DNA of 28,227 bases from positions 1 to 28,227 of IMG/VR virus record IMGVR_UViG_3300045988_125232. One strand, written 5' to 3'. Source of the DNA: a virus. Lineage: Duplodnaviria > Heunggongvirae > Uroviricota > Caudoviricetes. A model generated the notes under the pieces. It made no database searches and was not told the origin of the DNA. It saw only the letters and a list, made by a program, of their open reading frames with translations. The number at the start of each line of letters is the position of its first letter. Within the stretch, counting starts at the first letter, position 1. The translations under genes and the position numbers were made by a program. Positions 1,848 to 27,263 of this stretch are shown here, one piece after another.

Positions 1848-2152
1848 TATTTCACCTCTTGCTGTGATATTGTTGAAAAATGAATGCCAGCTCGTTGTTG
1901 CCAGACGATCCAACCGAGAGTCATATCCCATGCCATGTATTCGTTATCGCCGTTTTTTGCTCTCCGACTATCTACTAAGCCACCGAAACGTTTTTCCATA
2001 AATAATTCATAGGATTCGCGTTCATCTGGCTCTACTTCCAGAGATAGGAGTGCGATTTCATAAGCACGGCGCTCAATATCGTCTCGCACGTCAAGGCTGC
2101 TGATACGCTCTTTGATTTCTTTAATCAGTTCTTTGTCGGTAAAAGTGGTCAT
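1847..2152 (-). CDS. Hypothetical early-left operon protein (101 aa, acidic)
   Basis: ORF translationally coupled at both ends by overlapping stop/start codons in the leftward operon; no recognisable motif. Confidence 0.55.
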   Translation of the reverse strand: MTTFTDKELIKEIKERISSLDVRDDIERRAYEIALLSLEVEPDERESYELFMEKRFGGLVDSRRAKNGDNEYMAWDMTLGWIVWQQRAGIHFSTISQQEVK

Positions 2153-2514
2153 TATGCTCCAGCCTCCGGTGCTTTTGGCATTACTGCCCAGTGAGTGATA
2201 TTGACGTTTTCAAGGTCCCCGACCTGAAATGTCCACTGCCAGTCTCCGGTTTCTTTTTGTCCCCAGGTGTACCAGAGAGAACGCCAGCCAATTAGCCAGC
2301 CTTCTCCGTTAGCATCGAATAACAAAACACTTTCATTTGCTGGTGGCAGTTCAGTTGACACTGGTATTACTTTGTTTTCCAGTGCCGCACATTTAGCTTC
2401 AAGCGCATCGAATTTACGCACCAGGTATTCAGCATCCGTTTCATTCACTTTCAGATCTCGCGGTACACATTTCCCGCGAAGAAACCCTTCCATTTCGAAA
2501 ACATTCATGCGCAT
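2152..2514 (-). CDS. Hypothetical early-left operon protein (120 aa, Trp-rich C-terminal half)
   Basis: ORF coupled to its neighbours; resembles small conserved prophage proteins of unknown function; no catalytic motif. Confidence 0.55.
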   Translation of the reverse strand: MRMNVFEMEGFLRGKCVPRDLKVNETDAEYLVRKFDALEAKCAALENKVIPVSTELPPANESVLLFDANGEGWLIGWRSLWYTWGQKETGDWQWTFQVGDLENVNITHWAVMPKAPEAGA

Positions 2515-3041
2515 TTGCGTAACTCCGATAACTCGTTAAAACGTTCCATAAACATCCCGTAGGCATGGCCTGGCGACAGTGGAATAACTTTGAACATCTC
2601 TGTTGCTGGGATACCTTCCAGTAGAGGCCAGAAAGAGCCATCATCAAGCCCGAGATCGCGGCGTTCGGTTGCCAGCATGATGAGATCGGCATATTTCACG
2701 GGCGTGCTCATAACCGGGGGTAACCCGTATTTCTCACGGATTACGGCGTCTATTTTTTCTTCCATCCGTTTATAGTCAGGAAGAAGGCGTTTCAGTTGCG
2801 CGGGGATGTCCTGACAATACGCTTCTGTTGCATCATGCATTAACGCTTCAAAGGCGAACTCTGGCGCCACAAGTTGACTGCACAGAACGGAATGCTGCGC
2901 CACGCTGTAAAAATCCGGCAAGTGTCCCGCGAAGCGGCAGATATTTGAAAGCGCACCGGCGATATCCTCGATATAAATATCGTCAATGGTGGAGTTGATA
3001 TAATTGAACTTCTTACCGGTAAGAGTCTGGATAAAACTCAT
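2505..3041 (-). CDS. HD-domain phosphohydrolase (YfbR-like 5'-deoxynucleotidase family)
   Basis: 178-aa ORF with a His...His-Asp metal-binding signature (VAQHSV ... LMHDATEAY); AAGGAG ribosome-binding site upstream of the ATG. Confidence 0.75.
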   Translation of the reverse strand: MSFIQTLTGKKFNYINSTIDDIYIEDIAGALSNICRFAGHLPDFYSVAQHSVLCSQLVAPEFAFEALMHDATEAYCQDIPAQLKRLLPDYKRMEEKIDAVIREKYGLPPVMSTPVKYADLIMLATERRDLGLDDGSFWPLLEGIPATEMFKVIPLSPGHAYGMFMERFNELSELRKCA

Positions 3042-3198
3042 CGTTAGTTCTCCTTAATTGGTGCGCTGCACCGCACGATTTTTGGTTGCACGAATCCCTC
3101 GCCATAAGGCGATTAAAAGTTTTGGTTTCGTTTCAGTAAATGCCCCATCCAGAGGCACTTAGTGCAACGGGCGGCTGCCATCGCCAGTTATTTTCCCC

Positions 3199-3283
3199 AC
3201 TCAATTGAAAGCGCGTTCCGGAGGTTTTGGACTTAACGAACTGGCACTTAATGACAAGGGACAGAACGCGCTTTCAGTTGAGT
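3199..3283. repeat. Long imperfect inverted repeat (20-bp arms, about 45-bp spacer)
   Basis: ACTCAATTGAAAGCGCGTTC and GAACGCGCTTTCAGTTGAGT are reverse complements with one mismatch, in the non-coding gap between the HD gene and the moron. Confidence 0.5.
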
Positions 3284-3424
3284 AAAAAGGTGGCTATTCA
3301 TCAGAACATTGTCGCCTTCATTAGGTTTATCTGTTGAAGATCTGTAAGCCGCTTATAAATAAGTAGATATAAGATATTAGGAAAAGAAGAAGGACGTTAT
3401 AGTTTTATTTGTGATGTGCAAAGT

Positions 3425-3455
3425 ATATTTGAATAAAACCCGCCCAGCGGGTTCT
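3425..3455 (-). terminator. Rho-independent terminator downstream of the 198-aa moron gene
   Basis: GC-rich hairpin (AACCCGC...GCGGGTT) followed on the minus strand by a U-rich tract, just past the stop codon at 3464. Confidence 0.5.
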
Positions 3456-3463
3456 AAAGTGTT

Positions 3464-4060
3464 TTAATGATTGTCGTAATAATTAATTGGCTCATCATTT
3501 TTTTGGTCTGGCATAGTTATGGACCACTTTATATTCTTTAGGCTGTTATGTTTTTTATTGACCTTAAGCTCTCTCTTTGCTTCAGAGATAATATCGTCTA
3601 GTAATACTTTTAATTTATCAAGTCTTGACTTGTGGGCATCTATCAACTCTATACTATCAAACTCCCATTGTATAAATAGATTTTCTTCATTTTCAATGAA
3701 TGAACGGATTTTATCCCCACACTCTTCTGTTAAGAATAATGAAGATAGCTCACCTATTCTACTGAGTTTTTCAAGCTCATTAGAGAAAGATTTGCTAAGG
3801 ATTTCATTTTCTTCTTTTGATTTGTAACTAAAGTAGGTTGGGAATTGTGAAGCGTGATGTAACTCATGTTTATACCAATAGTCAGCTGTGTTTTTTAGAA
3901 GATAAACACAGTCAACTAATTGCGTATACAAATCTATTCTTTTGTCCCACCATTTTTCTTTATAATAACGGCCGAGTGCATATCGCGCAGTTAAGTAAGC
4001 TGCGATTGAGCCTGTAACAAGTCCGATAATTACCTTTGATATAAGGTCATGCCAATCCAT
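3464..4060 (-). CDS. Membrane-anchored protein of unknown function (moron; candidate lysogen-expressed exclusion or abortive-infection factor)
   Basis: 198-aa ORF with one N-terminal hydrophobic helix (VIIGLVTGSIAAYLTA), then a charged, Lys/Glu-rich helical body. Visibly AT-rich compared with flanking phage genes, with its own AT-rich upstream region and its own terminator. Confidence 0.7.
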   Translation of the reverse strand: MDWHDLISKVIIGLVTGSIAAYLTARYALGRYYKEKWWDKRIDLYTQLVDCVYLLKNTADYWYKHELHHASQFPTYFSYKSKEENEILSKSFSNELEKLSRIGELSSLFLTEECGDKIRSFIENEENLFIQWEFDSIELIDAHKSRLDKLKVLLDDIISEAKRELKVNKKHNSLKNIKWSITMPDQKNDEPINYYDNH

Positions 4061-4511
4061 TTTTATTTTTCCTACATTATGTTATATAATTGTTCATATC
4101 ATACAATTGTTGAGTATAGATGTCTCGTTATTCATCAACATTTACTCCTGTTAAATTAGGGGGAGTATGTATTAAAAATATTCATCTGGGTCGTCTAAAT
4201 ATTTTTGATAAACTAATAGCAATAACACTATCAATATTGCCTGCCCTCACGTCGTTCTTGCTCTCGCGCGATTTTTAACTAAACACTAGCAGGATTTATC
4301 ATGGTGCTACGCTACATTTACTTGTAGGGAGCTAAACAGATCATTGACGCTGAAAATATTCAAATTGTTAAAGAGCGAAGCGTCCTATGGGCGTTTTGTT
4401 GCTAACGAATCATCTTGGACTTCATATGCCCCAGGCGGCTACTTCGTGGACGTCCTGCCTGTTTGTTGTTTCTCTTGGGTACATTATGTATCTCAAAGGT
4501 ACATTGTCAAG

Positions 4512-4538
4512 TATAAAAAAACCTGCCGAAGCAGGTTC
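4512..4538 (-). terminator. Rho-independent terminator after the repressor gene
   Basis: Hairpin AACCTGC-CGAA-GCAGGTT followed on the minus strand by a run of U residues, immediately downstream of the repressor stop (4550). Confidence 0.55.
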
Positions 4539-4549
4539 ATAAACATTGA

Positions 4550-5224
4550 TTAGGCTTTGATTTTGTATCTTCTTGGTTTTCCTGAGAAAATCACTGTACC
4601 AATTATAGAGCAATTACCGTTGATCTTAATGTAAGGCTCAGGCCAGTTTGGGTTTAACGCTTTGAGATAACGCTGTGTCCCATCTTCTATCAACCTTTTG
4701 AAGGTGGTTTCACCTGTATCGTGCATCAATGCAATAACGTCGTCACCGTGGCAGGCAGGTACTTCAGGATCGACAAAAATCATGTCTCCCGGGCGGTACT
4801 CATCAATCATTGAATCACCTATCACCCGCAAGATATAAGTCATTTCCCCACAGGGGACAGGGCAGGGATACGTTTCTGCTGTGCTCAAATCAACCTCAGA
4901 ATATCCAACTTCTTTCCATGCTCCGGCCTGTACCCATGATATGACAGGGACTAATGTGATTTGTTTATTAGTGATTGAAACATCAGGTTTTTTTGTGATG
5001 TTCGTTGTCTGGTGTTCTTGATCGAGCCATCCGACAGGCAGGTCGAAACATTTTTCGATGTGTCGTGCCATGCTGTCACCGATATTTTTAGTAGCACCAT
5101 CTCCCATAAACCTGCTGGTCTGGGTTGGCTCGCGATCAATCATAGTGGCAAAGGAAGAATTCCCGCCAACACCATCTCTCAGTTTTCTGGCGTTAGACCG
5201 CCGGATGTCATGGATTGTTTTCAT
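4550..5224 (-). CDS. cI: CI-type prophage repressor (HTH plus S24 LexA-like autopeptidase domain)
   Basis: 224-aa ORF. The C-terminal domain carries the Ser/Lys dyad context (VIGDSM ... FKRL) and its end (LNPNWPEPYIKINGNCSIIGTVI) resembles P22 C2 / lambda CI. Divergently arranged against the cro-like gene. Confidence 0.9.
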   Translation of the reverse strand: MKTIHDIRRSNARKLRDGVGGNSSFATMIDREPTQTSRFMGDGATKNIGDSMARHIEKCFDLPVGWLDQEHQTTNITKKPDVSITNKQITLVPVISWVQAGAWKEVGYSEVDLSTAETYPCPVPCGEMTYILRVIGDSMIDEYRPGDMIFVDPEVPACHGDDVIALMHDTGETTFKRLIEDGTQRYLKALNPNWPEPYIKINGNCSIIGTVIFSGKPRRYKIKA

Positions 5225-5239
5225 AACGAAATTAAAACC

Positions 5240-5311
5240 CTTGTACCGTTAAGGTACAAGTATCTTGAAGGTTCATTTCAATCATGTAATATGTACATCG
5301 GAGGTACATAT
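5240..5311. promoter_or_regulatory. Operator/promoter region between the repressor and cro (three dyad-symmetric sites)
   Basis: Dyads read in sequence: CTTGTACC-N5-GGTACAAG, TTGAA-N7-TTCAA and ATATGTAC-N7-GTACATAT. A TAATAT -10-like hexamer and GGAGGT ribosome-binding site precede the cro ATG. Confidence 0.6.
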
Positions 5312-5314
5312 TGT

Positions 5315-5515
5315 ATGAAAGCGTATTGGGACTCTTTAACCAAAGAACAGCAGGGCGAGTTGGCCGGAAAAGTTGGCTCAACACCTGGCTACTTACGGCT
5401 GGTTTTCAATGGCTATAAAAAAGCCAGTTTTGTGCTGGCTAAAAAACTTGAGCAATGCACGTCAGGTGCAATTACGAAATCTGACTTAAGACCGGATATC
5501 TATCCGAAAGATTAG
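5315..5515 (+). CDS. cro: Cro-like HTH regulator (YdaS/Cro family)
   Basis: 66-aa product from an internal ATG with a GGAGGT Shine-Dalgarno; HTH-like segment and conserved LRPD motif typical of YdaS-type Cro analogues. The 167-aa ORF in the track is an upstream extension through the operator region. Confidence 0.7.
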   Translation: MKAYWDSLTKEQQGELAGKVGSTPGYLRLVFNGYKKASFVLAKKLEQCTSGAITKSDLRPDIYPKD

Positions 5516-5546
5516 CAGAACACTTTCAATTTTTAACCACAGAACG

Positions 5547-6116
5547 ATGAGGCTAATCGTGGGTAAGCATCACTGGAAAATAGAAAAACAGCCTGAGTGG
5601 TACGTGAAAGCTGTCAGAAAAACTATCGCGGCGTTGCCGGGTGGTTACGCTGAAGCGGCTGACTGGCTCGATGTAACAGAAAACGCTTTATTCAACCGCC
5701 TTCGTGCAGATGGCGATCAGATTTTCCCGCTGGGATGGGCAATGGTTTTACAGCGTGCTGGTGGCACTCACTTCATTGCTGATGCTGTGGCGCAGTCTGC
5801 AAATGGCGTCTTTGTGTCTCTTCCTGACGTCGAGGATGTGGACAACGCCGATATTAACCAGCGTCTGCTGGAAGTCATTGAACAGATCGGCAGTTATTCA
5901 AAACAGATTCGTTCAGCAATCGAAGACGGTGTAGTGGAACCGCATGAGAAGACAGCAATTAACGACGAGCTGTATCTCTCAATTTCGAAGCTGCAGGAGC
6001 ATGCAGCACTTGTCTACAAAATTTTTTGCATTTCAGAAAGTAATGACGCCCGCGAGTGTGCAGCTCCGGGCGTCGTGGCGTCGATTGCTTCTGGTTGTGG
6101 AGAAACTAACGCATGA
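5547..6116 (+). CDS. Putative CII-like / YdaT-like early regulatory protein (189 aa)
   Basis: Position immediately downstream of cro, same strand; assignment by synteny only. Confidence 0.5.
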
Positions 6117-12020: not shown

Positions 12021-12356
12021 ATGATTAATGCCGTTGAGTACAGATTACCGTTAGGAAATATCTCTCCAGAGAATCTTGACGCGTTGTCAGAGCTTATCGT
12101 TAAGCATTCCGATAAATTTAATAACTATGTACTTAGTTCTATTTCTGATGATGATATTCGATATTCTTACGATTACTACAATTTTGAAATCACAGAGATA
12201 GATGAATATGGGTTTCACTTTATAGCACCATATAGCTATTATGAAGGATGCGTTGACAATAACTTCTCAGGAGAGGTTGAAGGTTATGCAGAATACGAAA
12301 TCATTGATAATGAATTAGTCTTCTCTCTTGAGGAACTACCTTGGGATGTAAAATAA
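12021..12356 (+). CDS. Highly acidic small protein of unknown function (moron downstream of Q)
   Basis: 111-aa ORF with a strong AAGGAGG ribosome-binding site. AT-rich, bracketed by the upstream terminator and its own downstream terminator; Asp/Glu residues far outnumber basic ones. Confidence 0.7.
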   Translation: MINAVEYRLPLGNISPENLDALSELIVKHSDKFNNYVLSSISDDDIRYSYDYYNFEITEIDEYGFHFIAPYSYYEGCVDNNFSGEVEGYAEYEIIDNELVFSLEELPWDVK

Positions 12357-12398: not shown

Positions 12399-12507
12399 AA
12401 AATCATCAATGCCTGATGAATTAGAATGTAATTTTCGAATTAATAATAAATCAACATATCATTTCACGCTCCGATTTTCTGTCGGAGGCGAAACTGCGGC
12501 TATTCAT

Positions 12508-12813
12508 ATGCACGAAAAAGAGAATCTTGCTGGAGCGTTCTGGCTCGTTTTGCTGATCATCGCAGGTTGGGGCGGTCTGGTCCGCTACCTGATAGATGTG
12601 AAGCAGAGTAAAGCAACGTGGAGTTGGATAAATGCTCTGGCTCAGATAGTGGTATCAGGATTCACCGGTGTTATTGGTGGCCTGATCAGCATCGAAAGTG
12701 GATTCAGTATTTACATGATTCTCGCGACAGCGGGGATTAGTGGTGCGATGGGTTCGGTTGCACTGACGTACTTCTGGGAACGACTGACAGGGGTGAAAAA
12801 TGCAAAATCTTAA
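12508..12813 (+). CDS. Holin (three predicted transmembrane segments)
   Basis: Hydrophobic about 100-aa product immediately upstream of, and overlapping, the endolysin. The start is uncertain: the ORF extends up to an ATG at 12409, and a GGAGG lies 19 nt before the 12508 ATG. Confidence 0.6.
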   Translation: MHEKENLAGAFWLVLLIIAGWGGLVRYLIDVKQSKATWSWINALAQIVVSGFTGVIGGLISIESGFSIYMILATAGISGAMGSVALTYFWERLTGVKNAKS

Positions 12814-13276
12814 TCCTCAGCGTAAAGCTTTCCTCGATATGGTGGCATGGTCAGAAGGAACGGATAACGGGCGACAACCGACACGTAACCACGGTTATGA
12901 TATTATTGTCGGTGGTGAACTCTTCACTGATTACTCCGATCACCCTCGCAAACTTGTCACGCTAAACCCCAAACTCAAATCAACAGCTGCAGGCCGTTAT
13001 CAACTTCTTTCACGCTGGTGGGATGCTTACCGCAAGCAGCTTGGGCTGAAAGACTTCTCTCCAAAAAGCCAGGATGCTGTGGCATTGCAGCAGATTAAAG
13101 AGCGTGGCGCTTTACCGATGATTGATCGCGGCGATATTCGTCAGGCTATCGATCGTTGCAGCAATATCTGGGCTTCACTGCCGGGCGCTGGTTACGGTCA
13201 GTATGAACATAAAATCGGTGACCTGATTGCCCGATTCAAAGAGGCTGGCGGGGTGGTAAATGAAGTTGAGCTATAA
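12800..13276 (+). CDS. R: Endolysin, lambda R-type lytic transglycosylase
   Basis: 158 aa, near-collinear with lambda R as I recall it (...QRKAFLDMVAWSEGTDNGRQ...GYDIIVGGELFTDYSDHPRKLVTLNPKLKSTAAGRYQLLSRWWDAYRKQLGLKDFSPKSQDAVALQQIKERGALPMIDRGDIRQAIDRCSNIWASLPGAGYGQ...). Confidence 0.95.
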   Translation: MQNLNPQRKAFLDMVAWSEGTDNGRQPTRNHGYDIIVGGELFTDYSDHPRKLVTLNPKLKSTAAGRYQLLSRWWDAYRKQLGLKDFSPKSQDAVALQQIKERGALPMIDRGDIRQAIDRCSNIWASLPGAGYGQYEHKIGDLIARFKEAGGVVNEVEL

Positions 13277-24667: not shown

Positions 24668-24816
24668 CGGCTGAATACCTCACTGATCGCTTCTTTGACT
24701 GCGCCAGTTACTGGCGCATTAATCCTTTCGAATTGCTGAATATGCCGATCAGTGAAATTCCCTTGCTGGTCAGTCAGGCAAACAGGATAGAGCAGGAGAA
24801 ACGCACACATGGCTGA
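24634..24816 (+). CDS. Tail assembly chaperone, -1 frameshift extension
   Basis: Overlapping ORF in the -1 frame running from the slippery heptamer (about 24649-24655) to just inside the tape-measure start, matching the conserved programmed frameshift between tube and tape-measure genes. Confidence 0.55.
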   Translation: MACGRFFPPGLTAEYLTDRFFDCASYWRINPFELLNMPISEIPLLVSQANRIEQEKRTHG

Positions 24817-26641
24817 ATTTGAGCTTAAGGCGTTGATCACCGGTGTCGACAGACTTTCTCCCGCGCTGTCGAAAATGCAAAAGAAAATCCGGGGATTTAA
24901 ACGCCAGGCGGAAGAAGCATCACAGGGTGGGCTGGCGCTTGGTGGCGGACTGGCAGCGGGTCTGACGCTTTCCCTGAAATCTTATGCCGATCAGGAAAAC
25001 GCCGCCACCGGGCTGAAAGTCGCCATGATGGATGCGAACGGCGAGGTCGGAAAGAGCTTTCAGGACATCAATAAACTGGCTATTGGCCTGGGTAACCAGC
25101 TACCCGGTACAACGGCTGATTTCCAGAACATGATGCAGATGCTGGTGCGTCAGGGGATCCCGGCAGAAAATATTCTTGGCGGTGTGGGTAAAGCGACAGC
25201 TTATCTTGCGGTACAACTGAAAAAAACACCGGAAGCGGCTGCTGAGTTTGCTGCAAAGATGCAGGATGCTACCGGAACGGCGTCAGAAGACATGATGGGG
25301 CTGTTCGACACTATCCAGAAGGCGTTTTATCTGGGCGTTGACGATACCAACATGTTGTCCTTCTTCACTAAAACCAGTTCTGTTCTGAAGATGGTGAACA
25401 AGGACGGTCTTCAGGCTGCACAGAGCCTTGCCCCCATCAGCGTCATGATGGATCAGATGGGGATGAACGGGGAGTCGGCAGGTAATGCCCTGCGAAAAGT
25501 TATCCAGTCCGGATTAAGCGTTAAGAAAATCAGGGACGTTAATAAAGTTATGGCCCGCCAGAAACTCGGGGTACAGCTCGATTTTACTGACGGCAAAGGG
25601 AGTTTTGGCGGTCTTGATAACATGTTCAGGCAACTGGCAAAGCTGCGAAAACTGACCGACGTTAAGCGAACCGGTGTACTTAAGGCAATATTTGGTGATG
25701 ATGCCGAAACCCTTCAGGTGGTCAATGCTCTGATCGATAAAGGAAAGGATGGTTACGATCAGATCCAGCAGAAGATGAATAAACAGGCCAGCCTGAATAA
25801 ACGTGTTCAGGCCCAGCTTGGTACGCTGTCCAACCTGTGGGAGGCAATGACGGGGACCGCAACTAACGGCCTTGCGGCTATTGGCGGCGCATTTTCTGGT
25901 GACGTCAAAAATATCACGCAATGGCTGGGGGAGTTAGGGGAAAAATTCACGAAGTTTGCGGATGAAAATCCCCGGGTTATTCGCGGCGTCGTCGGGCTTG
26001 CTGCCGGTCTTGCGATTCTGAAACTGGGATTGATGGGCGTGGGCAGTGCCATCAGTATCGTCAGCAGGATCATGTCGATGACGCCGATTGGCATGATTGC
26101 GACGGCGATTGCCCTGGCTGCGGGATTAATTATCACTAACTGGGATGTTGTCGGACCTTATTTTAAGAAGCTCTGGGAAACCATTAGTCCTTATTTTGAG
26201 GCTGGCTGGGAACTTCTGAAGAAGGTTTTTGCCTGGTCGCCGCTGGGGATGGTGATCAATAACTGGGGACCGGTTGTTAAGTGGTTTCAGGATATGTGGG
26301 ATAAGCTGAAGCCGATTATTGAATGGTTTACCGACAGTTCCGGTGACACGGTCGATGCCATTAACTCGGCGCAGTGGGGCGCGGGTGCTTATGATGCTTA
26401 TGGGACGGGAATACCGCCACGGGGATACACTCCTTATCCGGAGGTGGATCCGGCTCAGGCAAACAACGCCTCCGGTGCCACAGGTCCGAATCCCTTCATG
26501 ATTAATAAAGCTACCGCGCCAAAAGTTGATGGTGAGATCAAGGTATCATTTATAAATATGCCACCAGGTATGCGGGTTACGGAAACACGCTCCAGTGGCA
26601 TTGATATAAATCACGATGTTGGCTATACCCGATTTTGGTAG
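24809..26641 (+). CDS. Tail tape measure protein
   Basis: 610 aa, helical, with Gly/Ala-rich hydrophobic segments in the C-terminal third; position after the chaperone pair. Confidence 0.9.
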   Translation: MAEFELKALITGVDRLSPALSKMQKKIRGFKRQAEEASQGGLALGGGLAAGLTLSLKSYADQENAATGLKVAMMDANGEVGKSFQDINKLAIGLGNQLPGTTADFQNMMQMLVRQGIPAENILGGVGKATAYLAVQLKKTPEAAAEFAAKMQDATGTASEDMMGLFDTIQKAFYLGVDDTNMLSFFTKTSSVLKMVNKDGLQAAQSLAPISVMMDQMGMNGESAGNALRKVIQSGLSVKKIRDVNKVMARQKLGVQLDFTDGKGSFGGLDNMFRQLAKLRKLTDVKRTGVLKAIFGDDAETLQVVNALIDKGKDGYDQIQQKMNKQASLNKRVQAQLGTLSNLWEAMTGTATNGLAAIGGAFSGDVKNITQWLGELGEKFTKFADENPRVIRGVVGLAAGLAILKLGLMGVGSAISIVSRIMSMTPIGMIATAIALAAGLIITNWDVVGPYFKKLWETISPYFEAGWELLKKVFAWSPLGMVINNWGPVVKWFQDMWDKLKPIIEWFTDSSGDTVDAINSAQWGAGAYDAYGTGIPPRGYTPYPEVDPAQANNASGATGPNPFMINKATAPKVDGEIKVSFINMPPGMRVTETRSSGIDINHDVGYTRFW

Positions 26642-26732: not shown

Positions 26733-27263
26733 ATGAAAGGCTATATCACAGCAAGTGTAATTCTTGGAGCAGCGGCTATTTTTTCATCTCTCATAATCTC
26801 TGGCAACATCTCCTTTAAAGATGAACATATTATTCAGTTATCTGGAGGAGCCATAAAACTTGGTGATGTTTATAAAGAAAATAAATTGATAAGTGCAAAG
26901 ATTATTTTTCCAGATAATCAGGGTGAACAGATTCTTGTTGTCGACGGCAATCCTGAAAACTTTAAGGAGGATTTTCAGGAGAAATTAAATAAAGTAATAA
27001 AAACTTTAAATGCGTCAAAGAAAAAAGATGAAGAGAAAGTTAGCCTGGATAATTTAAGTGTTATTGAAGAGTCTAAACTAGAGCTCGTTTCTGCGGTGCG
27101 TTACTCTGCTCAGTATGTTCCTATGTTTACTCTGACGCTGGACAAAAAAGAAATTACCATGCCTAAAAATACGGTAATATTTCCATTTGCCAGCGATGAA
27201 ACAGCTAAGTATTTAAATGAACAACAGCAAAAGTATAAAGATTCGTTGTTTCTGACTCGCTAA
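26733..27263 (+). CDS. Signal-anchored/exported protein of unknown function (moron inside the tail gene cluster)
   Basis: 176-aa ORF with an N-terminal hydrophobic signal or anchor (ITASVILGAAAIFSSLIISG) and a Lys/Glu-rich body. Strongly AT-rich against GC-rich tail genes, with its own promoter-like elements and terminator. Confidence 0.75.
   Translation: MKGYITASVILGAAAIFSSLIISGNISFKDEHIIQLSGGAIKLGDVYKENKLISAKIIFPDNQGEQILVVDGNPENFKEDFQEKLNKVIKTLNASKKKDEEKVSLDNLSVIEESKLELVSAVRYSAQYVPMFTLTLDKKEITMPKNTVIFPFASDETAKYLNEQQQKYKDSLFLTR

Follow-up and report, generated by a model that had tools for sequence, protein, structure and literature searches.

The 28,227-nucleotide stretch examined here (IMG/VR record IMGVR_UViG_3300045988_125232, positions 1 to 28,227; hereafter the window) is an e14/SfV-like lambdoid prophage of an Escherichia coli host, and close to its cI-type repressor gene it carries an AT-rich gene for a 198-amino-acid protein, here called gene X (3464-4060, minus strand). 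Judged from layout and composition, gene X is a stand-alone moron, a single gene with its own predicted promoter, its own terminator and a foreign base composition, and it is autonomous, dispensable and horizontally mobile. Its product, a predicted bitopic protein of the inner membrane, would place a four-helix bundle in the cytoplasm and bears no enzymatic signature. We regard gene X as a classic moron and a candidate exclusion gene, built on an uncharacterised protein family. That the product is a prophage-encoded exclusion or abortive-infection factor acting at the inner membrane is the explanation we favour, tentatively and at somewhat less than an even chance.

Comparison with orthologues of 52-84% amino acid identity gave ratios of nonsynonymous to synonymous substitution (dN/dS) of 0.12-0.20, which indicate that gene X is a real protein-coding gene under purifying selection. 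It has an ATG start with a Shine-Dalgarno sequence, AGGA, at 4073-4070, 9 nt 5′ of the ATG. A previous reading of the letters alone (the sequence-only reading) had described the gene as much more AT-rich than its surroundings, and this was borne out: its GC content is 0.333 vs 0.505 for the window, and the lowest-GC 597-nt segment of the whole 28 kb falls inside it, with only 1.8% of such segments equally low. The hairpin terminator that had been attributed to the gene was recovered as well, as an intrinsic terminator at 3434-3456 (minus strand; folding free energy (dG) -13.6 kcal/mol, z -3.6) consisting of GAACCCGC-UGG-GCGGGUUC and a U-tract, and 0 of 200 shuffles were as stable. The segment proposed as a cassette, 3300-4340, does exist, with blastn boundaries that are slightly wider (3147-4355) and delimit a variable slot absent from the SfV/PhiR29 backbones. 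Homology to those backbones spans positions 2001-3146 and 4356/4404-5400 of the window, and homology to a cassette in Citrobacter covers 3080-4401 at 77%. The roughly 290 bp between the gene X terminator and the resumed SfV-like backbone (3147-3433) contain no open reading frame (ORF) longer than 36 amino acids and are nonetheless 77% conserved with the Citrobacter cassette (L012).

Other genes fill this slot in related phages: orf31-33 in SfV, and in PhiR29_1 YfdQ and YfdP, which SfV has too, together with a 242-amino-acid ORF on the opposite strand. SfIV likewise carries other ORFans there, and the cassette is absent from SfV, SfIV and PhiR29. Among 5426 complete E. coli genomes, 1324 (about a quarter) have the e14/SfV-like, ymfK-type immunity module and only 16, several of them clonal, have the cassette at ≥99.9% identity. 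Distinct base composition, an own terminator and presence/absence polymorphism among close relatives, three hallmarks of a moron, are all found here, and the picture of a self-contained, compositionally foreign single-gene cassette that is polymorphic within one immunity type was upheld. Near-identical copies of gene X in other E. coli prophages are inactivated by a nonsense mutation, Q47*, in two loci (L019:3357-3953 and L020), and another copy is disrupted by an IS1 insertion after codon 44 (L041:5836-6440); since such natural knock-outs exist, the gene is dispensable and perhaps costly. The same prophage arm bears an IS1634-family insertion in strain ECONIH4.

Occupants of the repressor-proximal slot in related phages (L003:3256-3984 (+), L002:3678-3974 (-), L008:2015-2788 (+), L008:4611-5525 (-) and L007:8762-9259 (-)) were recorded alongside. 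Slot occupants in related phages are ORFans with no convincing match in Pfam or PADLOC, except for phi80 40A, which matches DUF7946/DUF7947 in Pfam and, weakly, PDC-S42 in PADLOC; one occupant ORF has sub-threshold coiled-coil matches. Because the other occupants are ORFans, the slot cannot be demonstrated to be a hotspot of known defence genes.

AlphaFold2 modelled the gene X product, using a 70-sequence alignment, with a predicted local distance difference test (pLDDT) score of 89.7. In the model a continuous helix at residues 3-70 comprises the N-terminal transmembrane (TM) helix (residues about 6-29) and the first helix of the bundle, and further helices follow at 82-104, 112-133 and 139-164; the predicted up-down four-helix bundle extends to about residue 165, with residues 166-198 forming a disordered tail. 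All 70 relatives have one hydrophobic segment that starts near residue 6. The median number of lysine and arginine residues is none in the N-terminal flank of about 5 residues vs 4 in the 15 residues past the segment, and because of this skew to the C-terminal side of the TM helix an N-out/C-in topology is predicted for all 70, leaving the bundle in the cytoplasm. The single N-terminal TM helix and helical body that had been read from the sequence therefore agree with both the model and the hydrophobicity and charge pattern of the relatives.

Within the TM helix, positions 13, 17, 20/21, 24 and 28 are glycine, alanine, serine or threonine in 87-100% of family members (G13, G17, A21, T24 and A28 in gene X). 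Small-residue TM faces of this kind, such as GxxxG and glycine-zipper motifs, mediate tight helix-helix packing. The helix is followed by a juxtamembrane collar (residues 29-41, L29-x-R31-F32-Y33-x-E35-K36-W37-W38-E39-K40-K41) that is amphipathic, Trp-rich and strictly conserved, with W38 invariant across the family. The third conserved patch is the end of the last helix, A161-K-K-D/E-L165.

A word-seeded search returned only 10 close clusters, from E. coli, Citrobacter, Raoultella and metagenomes. Wherever flanking sequence was available, these close homologues lay just downstream of an S24 repressor and on its strand, next to five different repressors. An exhaustive profile search extended the family to 376 representatives of 50%-identity clusters (E≤1e-3), typically of 150-200 amino acids and aligning over their full length. 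Members occur in at least 135 IMG/VR loci. We examined 160 loci from IMG/VR and Genome Taxonomy Database (GTDB) genomes by clustering 1498 neighbouring ORFs and annotating the cluster representatives with Pfam. No partner gene shared between contexts was found among these ORFs. Instead, the family recurs downstream of cI-type repressors (26 loci, 23 on the same strand), between portal/MuF-like head genes and scaffold/capsid genes (about 18 loci), just upstream of xis/int (11 or more loci), after a lysozyme gene (10 loci) and just after N (8 loci), which are the classic moron slots of temperate phages. At 138 of 145 loci the family gene is poorer in GC than the sequence around it (median -11.7 points), and on 65 of 66 viral contigs the gap exceeds 5 points. 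Of 50,697 GenBank phage records only two contain a member, those of Enterobacter phage CobraSix and Serratia phage OS31; the two phages are temperate and the family gene adjoins xis/int in each. Members are also found in variable regions of chromosomes, where some copies neighbour genes for PIN_12, PLD-like plus NOV_C, Schlafen/AlbA_2-HATPase, an SNF2 helicase or transposases. Taken together, this is the behaviour of a promiscuous accessory module of one gene that belongs to temperate elements, with a strong bias to temperate-phage genomes.

No homology to a housekeeping early phage function was detected in Pfam, NCBIfam, PADLOC, PHROGs or Foldseek searches, and the statement that the protein has no recognisable catalytic motif stands. 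Structure and profile searches gave no functional relative. The product has no match in Pfam or NCBIfam, and Pfam gave nothing convincing on 70 diverse relatives either. Its sole PHROGs match is phrog_17948, listed as unknown function, and family members are all named "hypothetical" in their sources. PDB sequence searches with both profiles returned nothing significant, Foldseek against BFVD and PDB returned nothing at E≤1e-3, and literature searches on phrog_17948, the IMG/VR accession and PhiR29/ECOR13 turned up nothing relevant. Two specific assignments were tried and rejected. Gene X is not a HEPN protein, as it has no conserved Rx4-6H motif. Hallmarks of an i-spanin are location in a lysis cassette, an o-spanin partner and a periplasmic coiled-coil body; an i-spanin (Rz-like) identity was discarded given the immunity-region location, the compact, predicted cytoplasmic four-helix bundle and the lysis genes at 12409-13276.

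As the sequence-only reading had it, gene X is on the same strand as the S24 repressor gene (4550-5224, minus strand) and just downstream, 490 bp away. This repressor, which lies outside the cassette, is of the YmfK/e14-SfV immunity type (Peptidase_S24, Pfam PF00717, E 1.5e-26), is 98% identical to cI of SfV, SfIV and PhiR29 and is labelled LexA family protein / ymfK in RefSeq; the repressor region is 95-98% identical to SfV, SfIV, PhiR29, cdtI and Stx2c phages. The parallel that had been drawn with the position of lambda rexAB did not survive, since several control elements intervene. An intrinsic terminator of the cI transcript (4519-4538, minus strand; fold dG -11.6, z -3.7) comes directly after the cI stop codon, at a site annotated as a terminator in SfV too. 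Beyond it is a pL-like early-left promoter, TTGACA-16-CATAAT (4510-4483, minus strand), which agrees with the sigma70 consensus at 11/12 positions; two operators of 17 nt (4467-4483 and 4487-4503) overlap it. Three more operators occupy the cI-cro intergenic region (5242-5258, 5259-5275 and 5292-5308), and copies of their shared motif, TGTAYC-N5-GGTACA, occur only over pL and in the cI-cro interval. Read from these motifs, 4467-4510 is a repressor-controlled early-left promoter, pL with OL. The operator copy at 5242-5258 is a perfect palindrome, and a terminator scan misread it as a hairpin terminator.

The next element is a phi80-type nutL (4225-4379, minus strand; nhmmer E 1.7e-41), identified also by a blastn match to the annotated phi80 nutL boxA/core. 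Its boxA, CGCTCTTTAACAA at 4377-4365, is an exact rrn-type boxA about 100 nt downstream of pL, and a boxB-like hairpin, CUACA-AGUAAA-UGUAG, follows at 4327-4312, with its pairing kept through compensatory changes. The block of 155 nt (GC 0.40) is conserved in five diverged gene X loci and is about 71% identical to the annotated phi80 nutL (boxA plus core); the copies of L007, L008 and L052 are nearly identical to phi80, and an alignment of 7 sequences has 80% column identity. The notion that this conserved block is a new RNA element was rejected, as it is the annotated phi80 nutL. Of the AT-rich upstream region that had been assigned to the gene, only 4061-4225 fits the description; 4225-4379 is nutL.

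In phi80 the order is nutL, the N leader and N. In the gene X loci, phi80 homology ends with nutL and an AT-rich stretch of 165 nt then runs into gene X, while homology to SfV-like backbones stops at, or just before, nutL. Because the cI terminator, pL with its operators and nutL all intervene, gene X occupies the N slot downstream of a cI-repressed pL; this is the leading position in the early-left operon, taken by N in phi80 and lambda. Lying beyond the cI terminator and pL, gene X cannot be co-transcribed with cI from pRM in the way of rexAB. No N homologue was found in the 28-kb window by tblastn with N of lambda, phi80 and L077, and no second boxA or nutR was found in it. A nutL with no recognisable N suggests that this prophage either has an orphan nut site or uses Nus factors for antitermination independently of N, and an rrn-consensus boxA can act with Nus factors alone (PMC5725501).

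A sigma70-like promoter of the cassette itself is predicted at 4098-4126 (minus strand), with GAGACA at 4126-4121, a 17-nt spacer and TATGAT at 4103-4098; it scored 9/12 against the consensus in the scan and places the transcription start near 4091. AGACAT in the -35 region and TATxxT in the -10 region are kept in all five diverged loci, the -10 being TATGAT, TATAAT or TATAGT, and in comparisons of the more distant loci the dS of adjacent coding sequence has reached, or nearly reached, saturation. The conservation of this promoter-like element while synonymous sites are saturated supports a promoter borne by the cassette. No GAGACA-17-TATGAT-like element is present upstream of phi80 N.

On the exclusion reading, the gene X cassette would have recombined into the early-left operon of an e14/SfV-type prophage right after pL and nutL. 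In the lysogen the cassette's own promoter would supply a low level of the product, and upon induction or infection gene X would be expressed once more, as the first transcript from pL. The small-residue stripe could drive homo-oligomerisation or docking onto a host inner-membrane protein, with the cytoplasmic bundle as a regulatory or recognition module. As a homo-oligomer, the protein might have its TM bundle gated by the cytoplasmic domain and, when triggered, cause a membrane lesion of the abortive-infection type; alternatively, docking onto a host inner-membrane protein used for genome entry might block incoming DNA, as in superinfection exclusion (Sie). Docking at a genome-entry protein has been proposed for P22 SieA (PMC10883804). 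The interval from cI to N is a recognised mosaic hotspot that is home to rexAB and bstA (PMC8585504).

The closest functional and positional analogue would be SieB of lambda and P22 (PF14163), an abortive-infection protein of the pL operon next to N. Like gene X, it is a single-gene, membrane-associated system; the sizes (184-192 amino acids for SieB vs 198) are similar and the early-left, N-adjacent location is common to both. SieB is said, after Ranade & Poteete in 1993, to be expressed in the lysogen from its own promoter. However, there is no sequence relation, the gene X product being one N-terminal TM helix and then a four-helix bundle, and lambda sieB lies on the strand opposite to pL, whereas gene X lies on the pL strand. 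RexAB is likewise a pair of prophage exclusion genes in the immunity region and on the repressor strand, but its two genes lie between cI and OL/pL and are co-transcribed from pRM, whereas gene X is single, lies beyond pL/nutL and shows no homology to them. Gene X belongs with neither SieB nor RexAB, and we found no other known family to which it could be assigned.

An exclusion gene in the N slot has a precedent in nun of HK022, a lambdoid phage with no need of N for itself. Its product, a relative of N, is small and rich in arginine and binds RNA, acting on nut RNA, whereas the gene X product is a membrane protein without an arginine-rich motif. BstA of prophage BTP1 is also a single-gene defence just downstream of the repressor in the cI-N hotspot, and it is found outside prophages too; BstA is soluble, gathers where phage DNA is being replicated and is presumed to be expressed from the promoter of the repressor gene (PMC8585504). 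The gene X product differs from BstA in being membrane-anchored, encoded beyond pL and without a PADLOC match. Prophage-encoded membrane exclusion or abortive-infection proteins include P22 SieA and PdpSau of Staphylococcus aureus (PMC10883804, PMC10127798). The likeness of gene X to these two, and to HK97 gp15 and lactococcal Sie2009, is that of small membrane proteins encoded by prophage morons and acting at or near the cytoplasmic membrane. Both gp15 and Sie2009 are small prophage membrane exclusion proteins carried as morons. For gp15, Sie2009 and PdpSau the comparison is by description only, and the bulk of the gene X product is predicted to be cytoplasmic. Neither Pfam nor PHROG annotation connects gene X with gp15 or Sie2009. 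In architecture, membrane-tethered four-helix-bundle sensor modules (NarQ/NarX, 4HB_MCP) are among the systems closest to gene X.

Several observations weigh against an exclusion role. The 5027 models of PADLOC-DB 2.0 gave 0 matches at E≤10 for the gene X product, and on the 70 relatives only scattered matches with E>7e-4, none of them convincing. In Pfam, SieB (PF14163) was matched neither by the protein (E≤1) nor by any of the 70 relatives (E≤0.01), and the protein matched neither RexA nor RexB. Alignment with hhalign gave probabilities of 0.4% for lambda SieB and 1.7% for P22 SieA, the latter over the TM segment only, both being weak tests with single-sequence templates. The best fold matches are designed proteins and sensor domains, and as a generic four-helix bundle the fold is uninformative on function. 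If the predicted topology is right, the cytoplasmic body argues against receptor masking. Since gene X is beyond the cI-repressed pL, its expression in the lysogen would depend on a predicted promoter that is weak (9/12), and the region has no more promoter-like matches than shuffled sequence. Finally, several chromosomal neighbours of family members are plain metabolic or housekeeping genes, and a composition rich in lysine, glutamate and asparagine could partly account for the low GC content of gene X.

An early lytic or host-takeover function, in which the product, made straight after induction or infection, modulates a host inner-membrane process for the phage's own benefit instead of defending the lysogen, is the strongest competitor, although we consider it unlikely. 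Kil, cIII and T4 Imm and Sp are examples of early-acting phage proteins. Gene X is directly downstream of the operator-controlled pL and nutL with no predicted terminator between, and other members sit inside early-left operons just before xis/int or just after N. Nevertheless, about 99% of the prophages that share this immunity module lack the gene, and natural knock-outs of it exist; other members are also found in head and lysis modules and in non-phage chromosomal regions, and the conserved promoter-like element and the terminator are its own, the latter being odd for an internal operon gene.

Less likely again is a lysogenic conversion function unrelated to phages, similar to bor or lom of lambda, by which the membrane protein would alter host physiology (envelope stress tolerance, colonisation or signalling). 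The resemblance of the fold to sensor modules would suit such a role, but the protein has no output domain and the part predicted to be outside is an N-terminus of only about 5 residues, which leaves nothing periplasmic to sense. A conserved partner gene was not found, and the family is strongly biased to temperate phages.

A membrane toxin or addiction-like element, whose TM stripe would form a pore that stabilises the prophage or times lysis in the manner of a holin/antiholin, seems improbable. The glycine-zipper-like stripe conserved in 88-100% of members, the recurrent inactivation by nonsense mutation and IS1 and the 10 loci just after a lysozyme gene would all fit a toxin. On the other hand, we found no cognate antitoxin or conserved neighbour, the lysozyme-linked members follow the lysis cassette and are not within it, and a lysis cassette of its own, comprising a holin-like gene (12409-12813) and a lysozyme gene (12800-13276), lies elsewhere in the window.

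That the product has replaced N functionally and is itself the antiterminator is hardly credible: gene X is at the exact position of phi80 N behind a nutL kept in five diverged gene X loci, in a window with no detected N homologue, but the product is membrane-anchored and without an arginine-rich motif, members occur in many contexts without a nut site, L052 has the same nutL followed by an 87-amino-acid ORF, presumably N, at the phi80 N position with the family gene 4.6 kb further downstream, and an rrn-consensus boxA can work with Nus factors alone (PMC5725501). Identification of gene X as an N antiterminator was rejected because its N-terminus is a TM helix and the product lacks an arginine-rich motif.

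If phage exclusion is confirmed as the role of gene X, it would represent a compact single-gene membrane defence family, with a core of about 165 amino acids, that current defence finders do not see; being common in prophages of several phyla, the family would bear on host-range prediction and on phage-therapy failure in Enterobacteriaceae. The farther-reaching proposal, that gene X is the founding example of a widespread and unrecognised family of single-protein anti-phage factors, has displaced N behind a retained phi80-type nutL in a set of enterobacterial lambdoid phages and has left the early-left operon to N-independent, rrn-style boxA/Nus antitermination, appears doubtful as a whole. 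A gene of this class is to be expected at the locus; the family is sizeable, unannotated and structurally well defined, and replacement in the N slot behind an orphan nutL is unusual. Function aside, the locus is a clean example of module exchange at boxA/nutL, and a moron in the N slot beside a nut site with no recognisable N poses a testable question about N-independent antitermination in e14/SfV-like prophages.

Elsewhere in the window, the integrase gene (457-1620) is on the minus strand, as are a xis-like gene, small early genes and an HD-family hydrolase gene (2505-3041). The plus strand carries cro/YmfT, a gene for the CII-like YmfL and replication genes. In a related NC-SV prophage, svsR, a co293-like small RNA at the 3′ end of cI, has been reported to reduce phage adsorption (PMC12803456). 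The equivalent region of the window is about 4550-4650, and an Rfam scan of 2900-5600 gave no match. Two further low-GC ORFs were noticed. The first (26733-27263, plus strand; 176 amino acids) encodes an N-terminal hydrophobic helix and lies directly 3′ of the tape-measure gene (24809-26641), where exclusion morons are found in other phages; neither Pfam nor PADLOC gave a match for it. The second (12021-12356, plus strand) encodes an acidic protein of 111 amino acids just 5′ of the holin-like and lysozyme genes and is possibly another moron.

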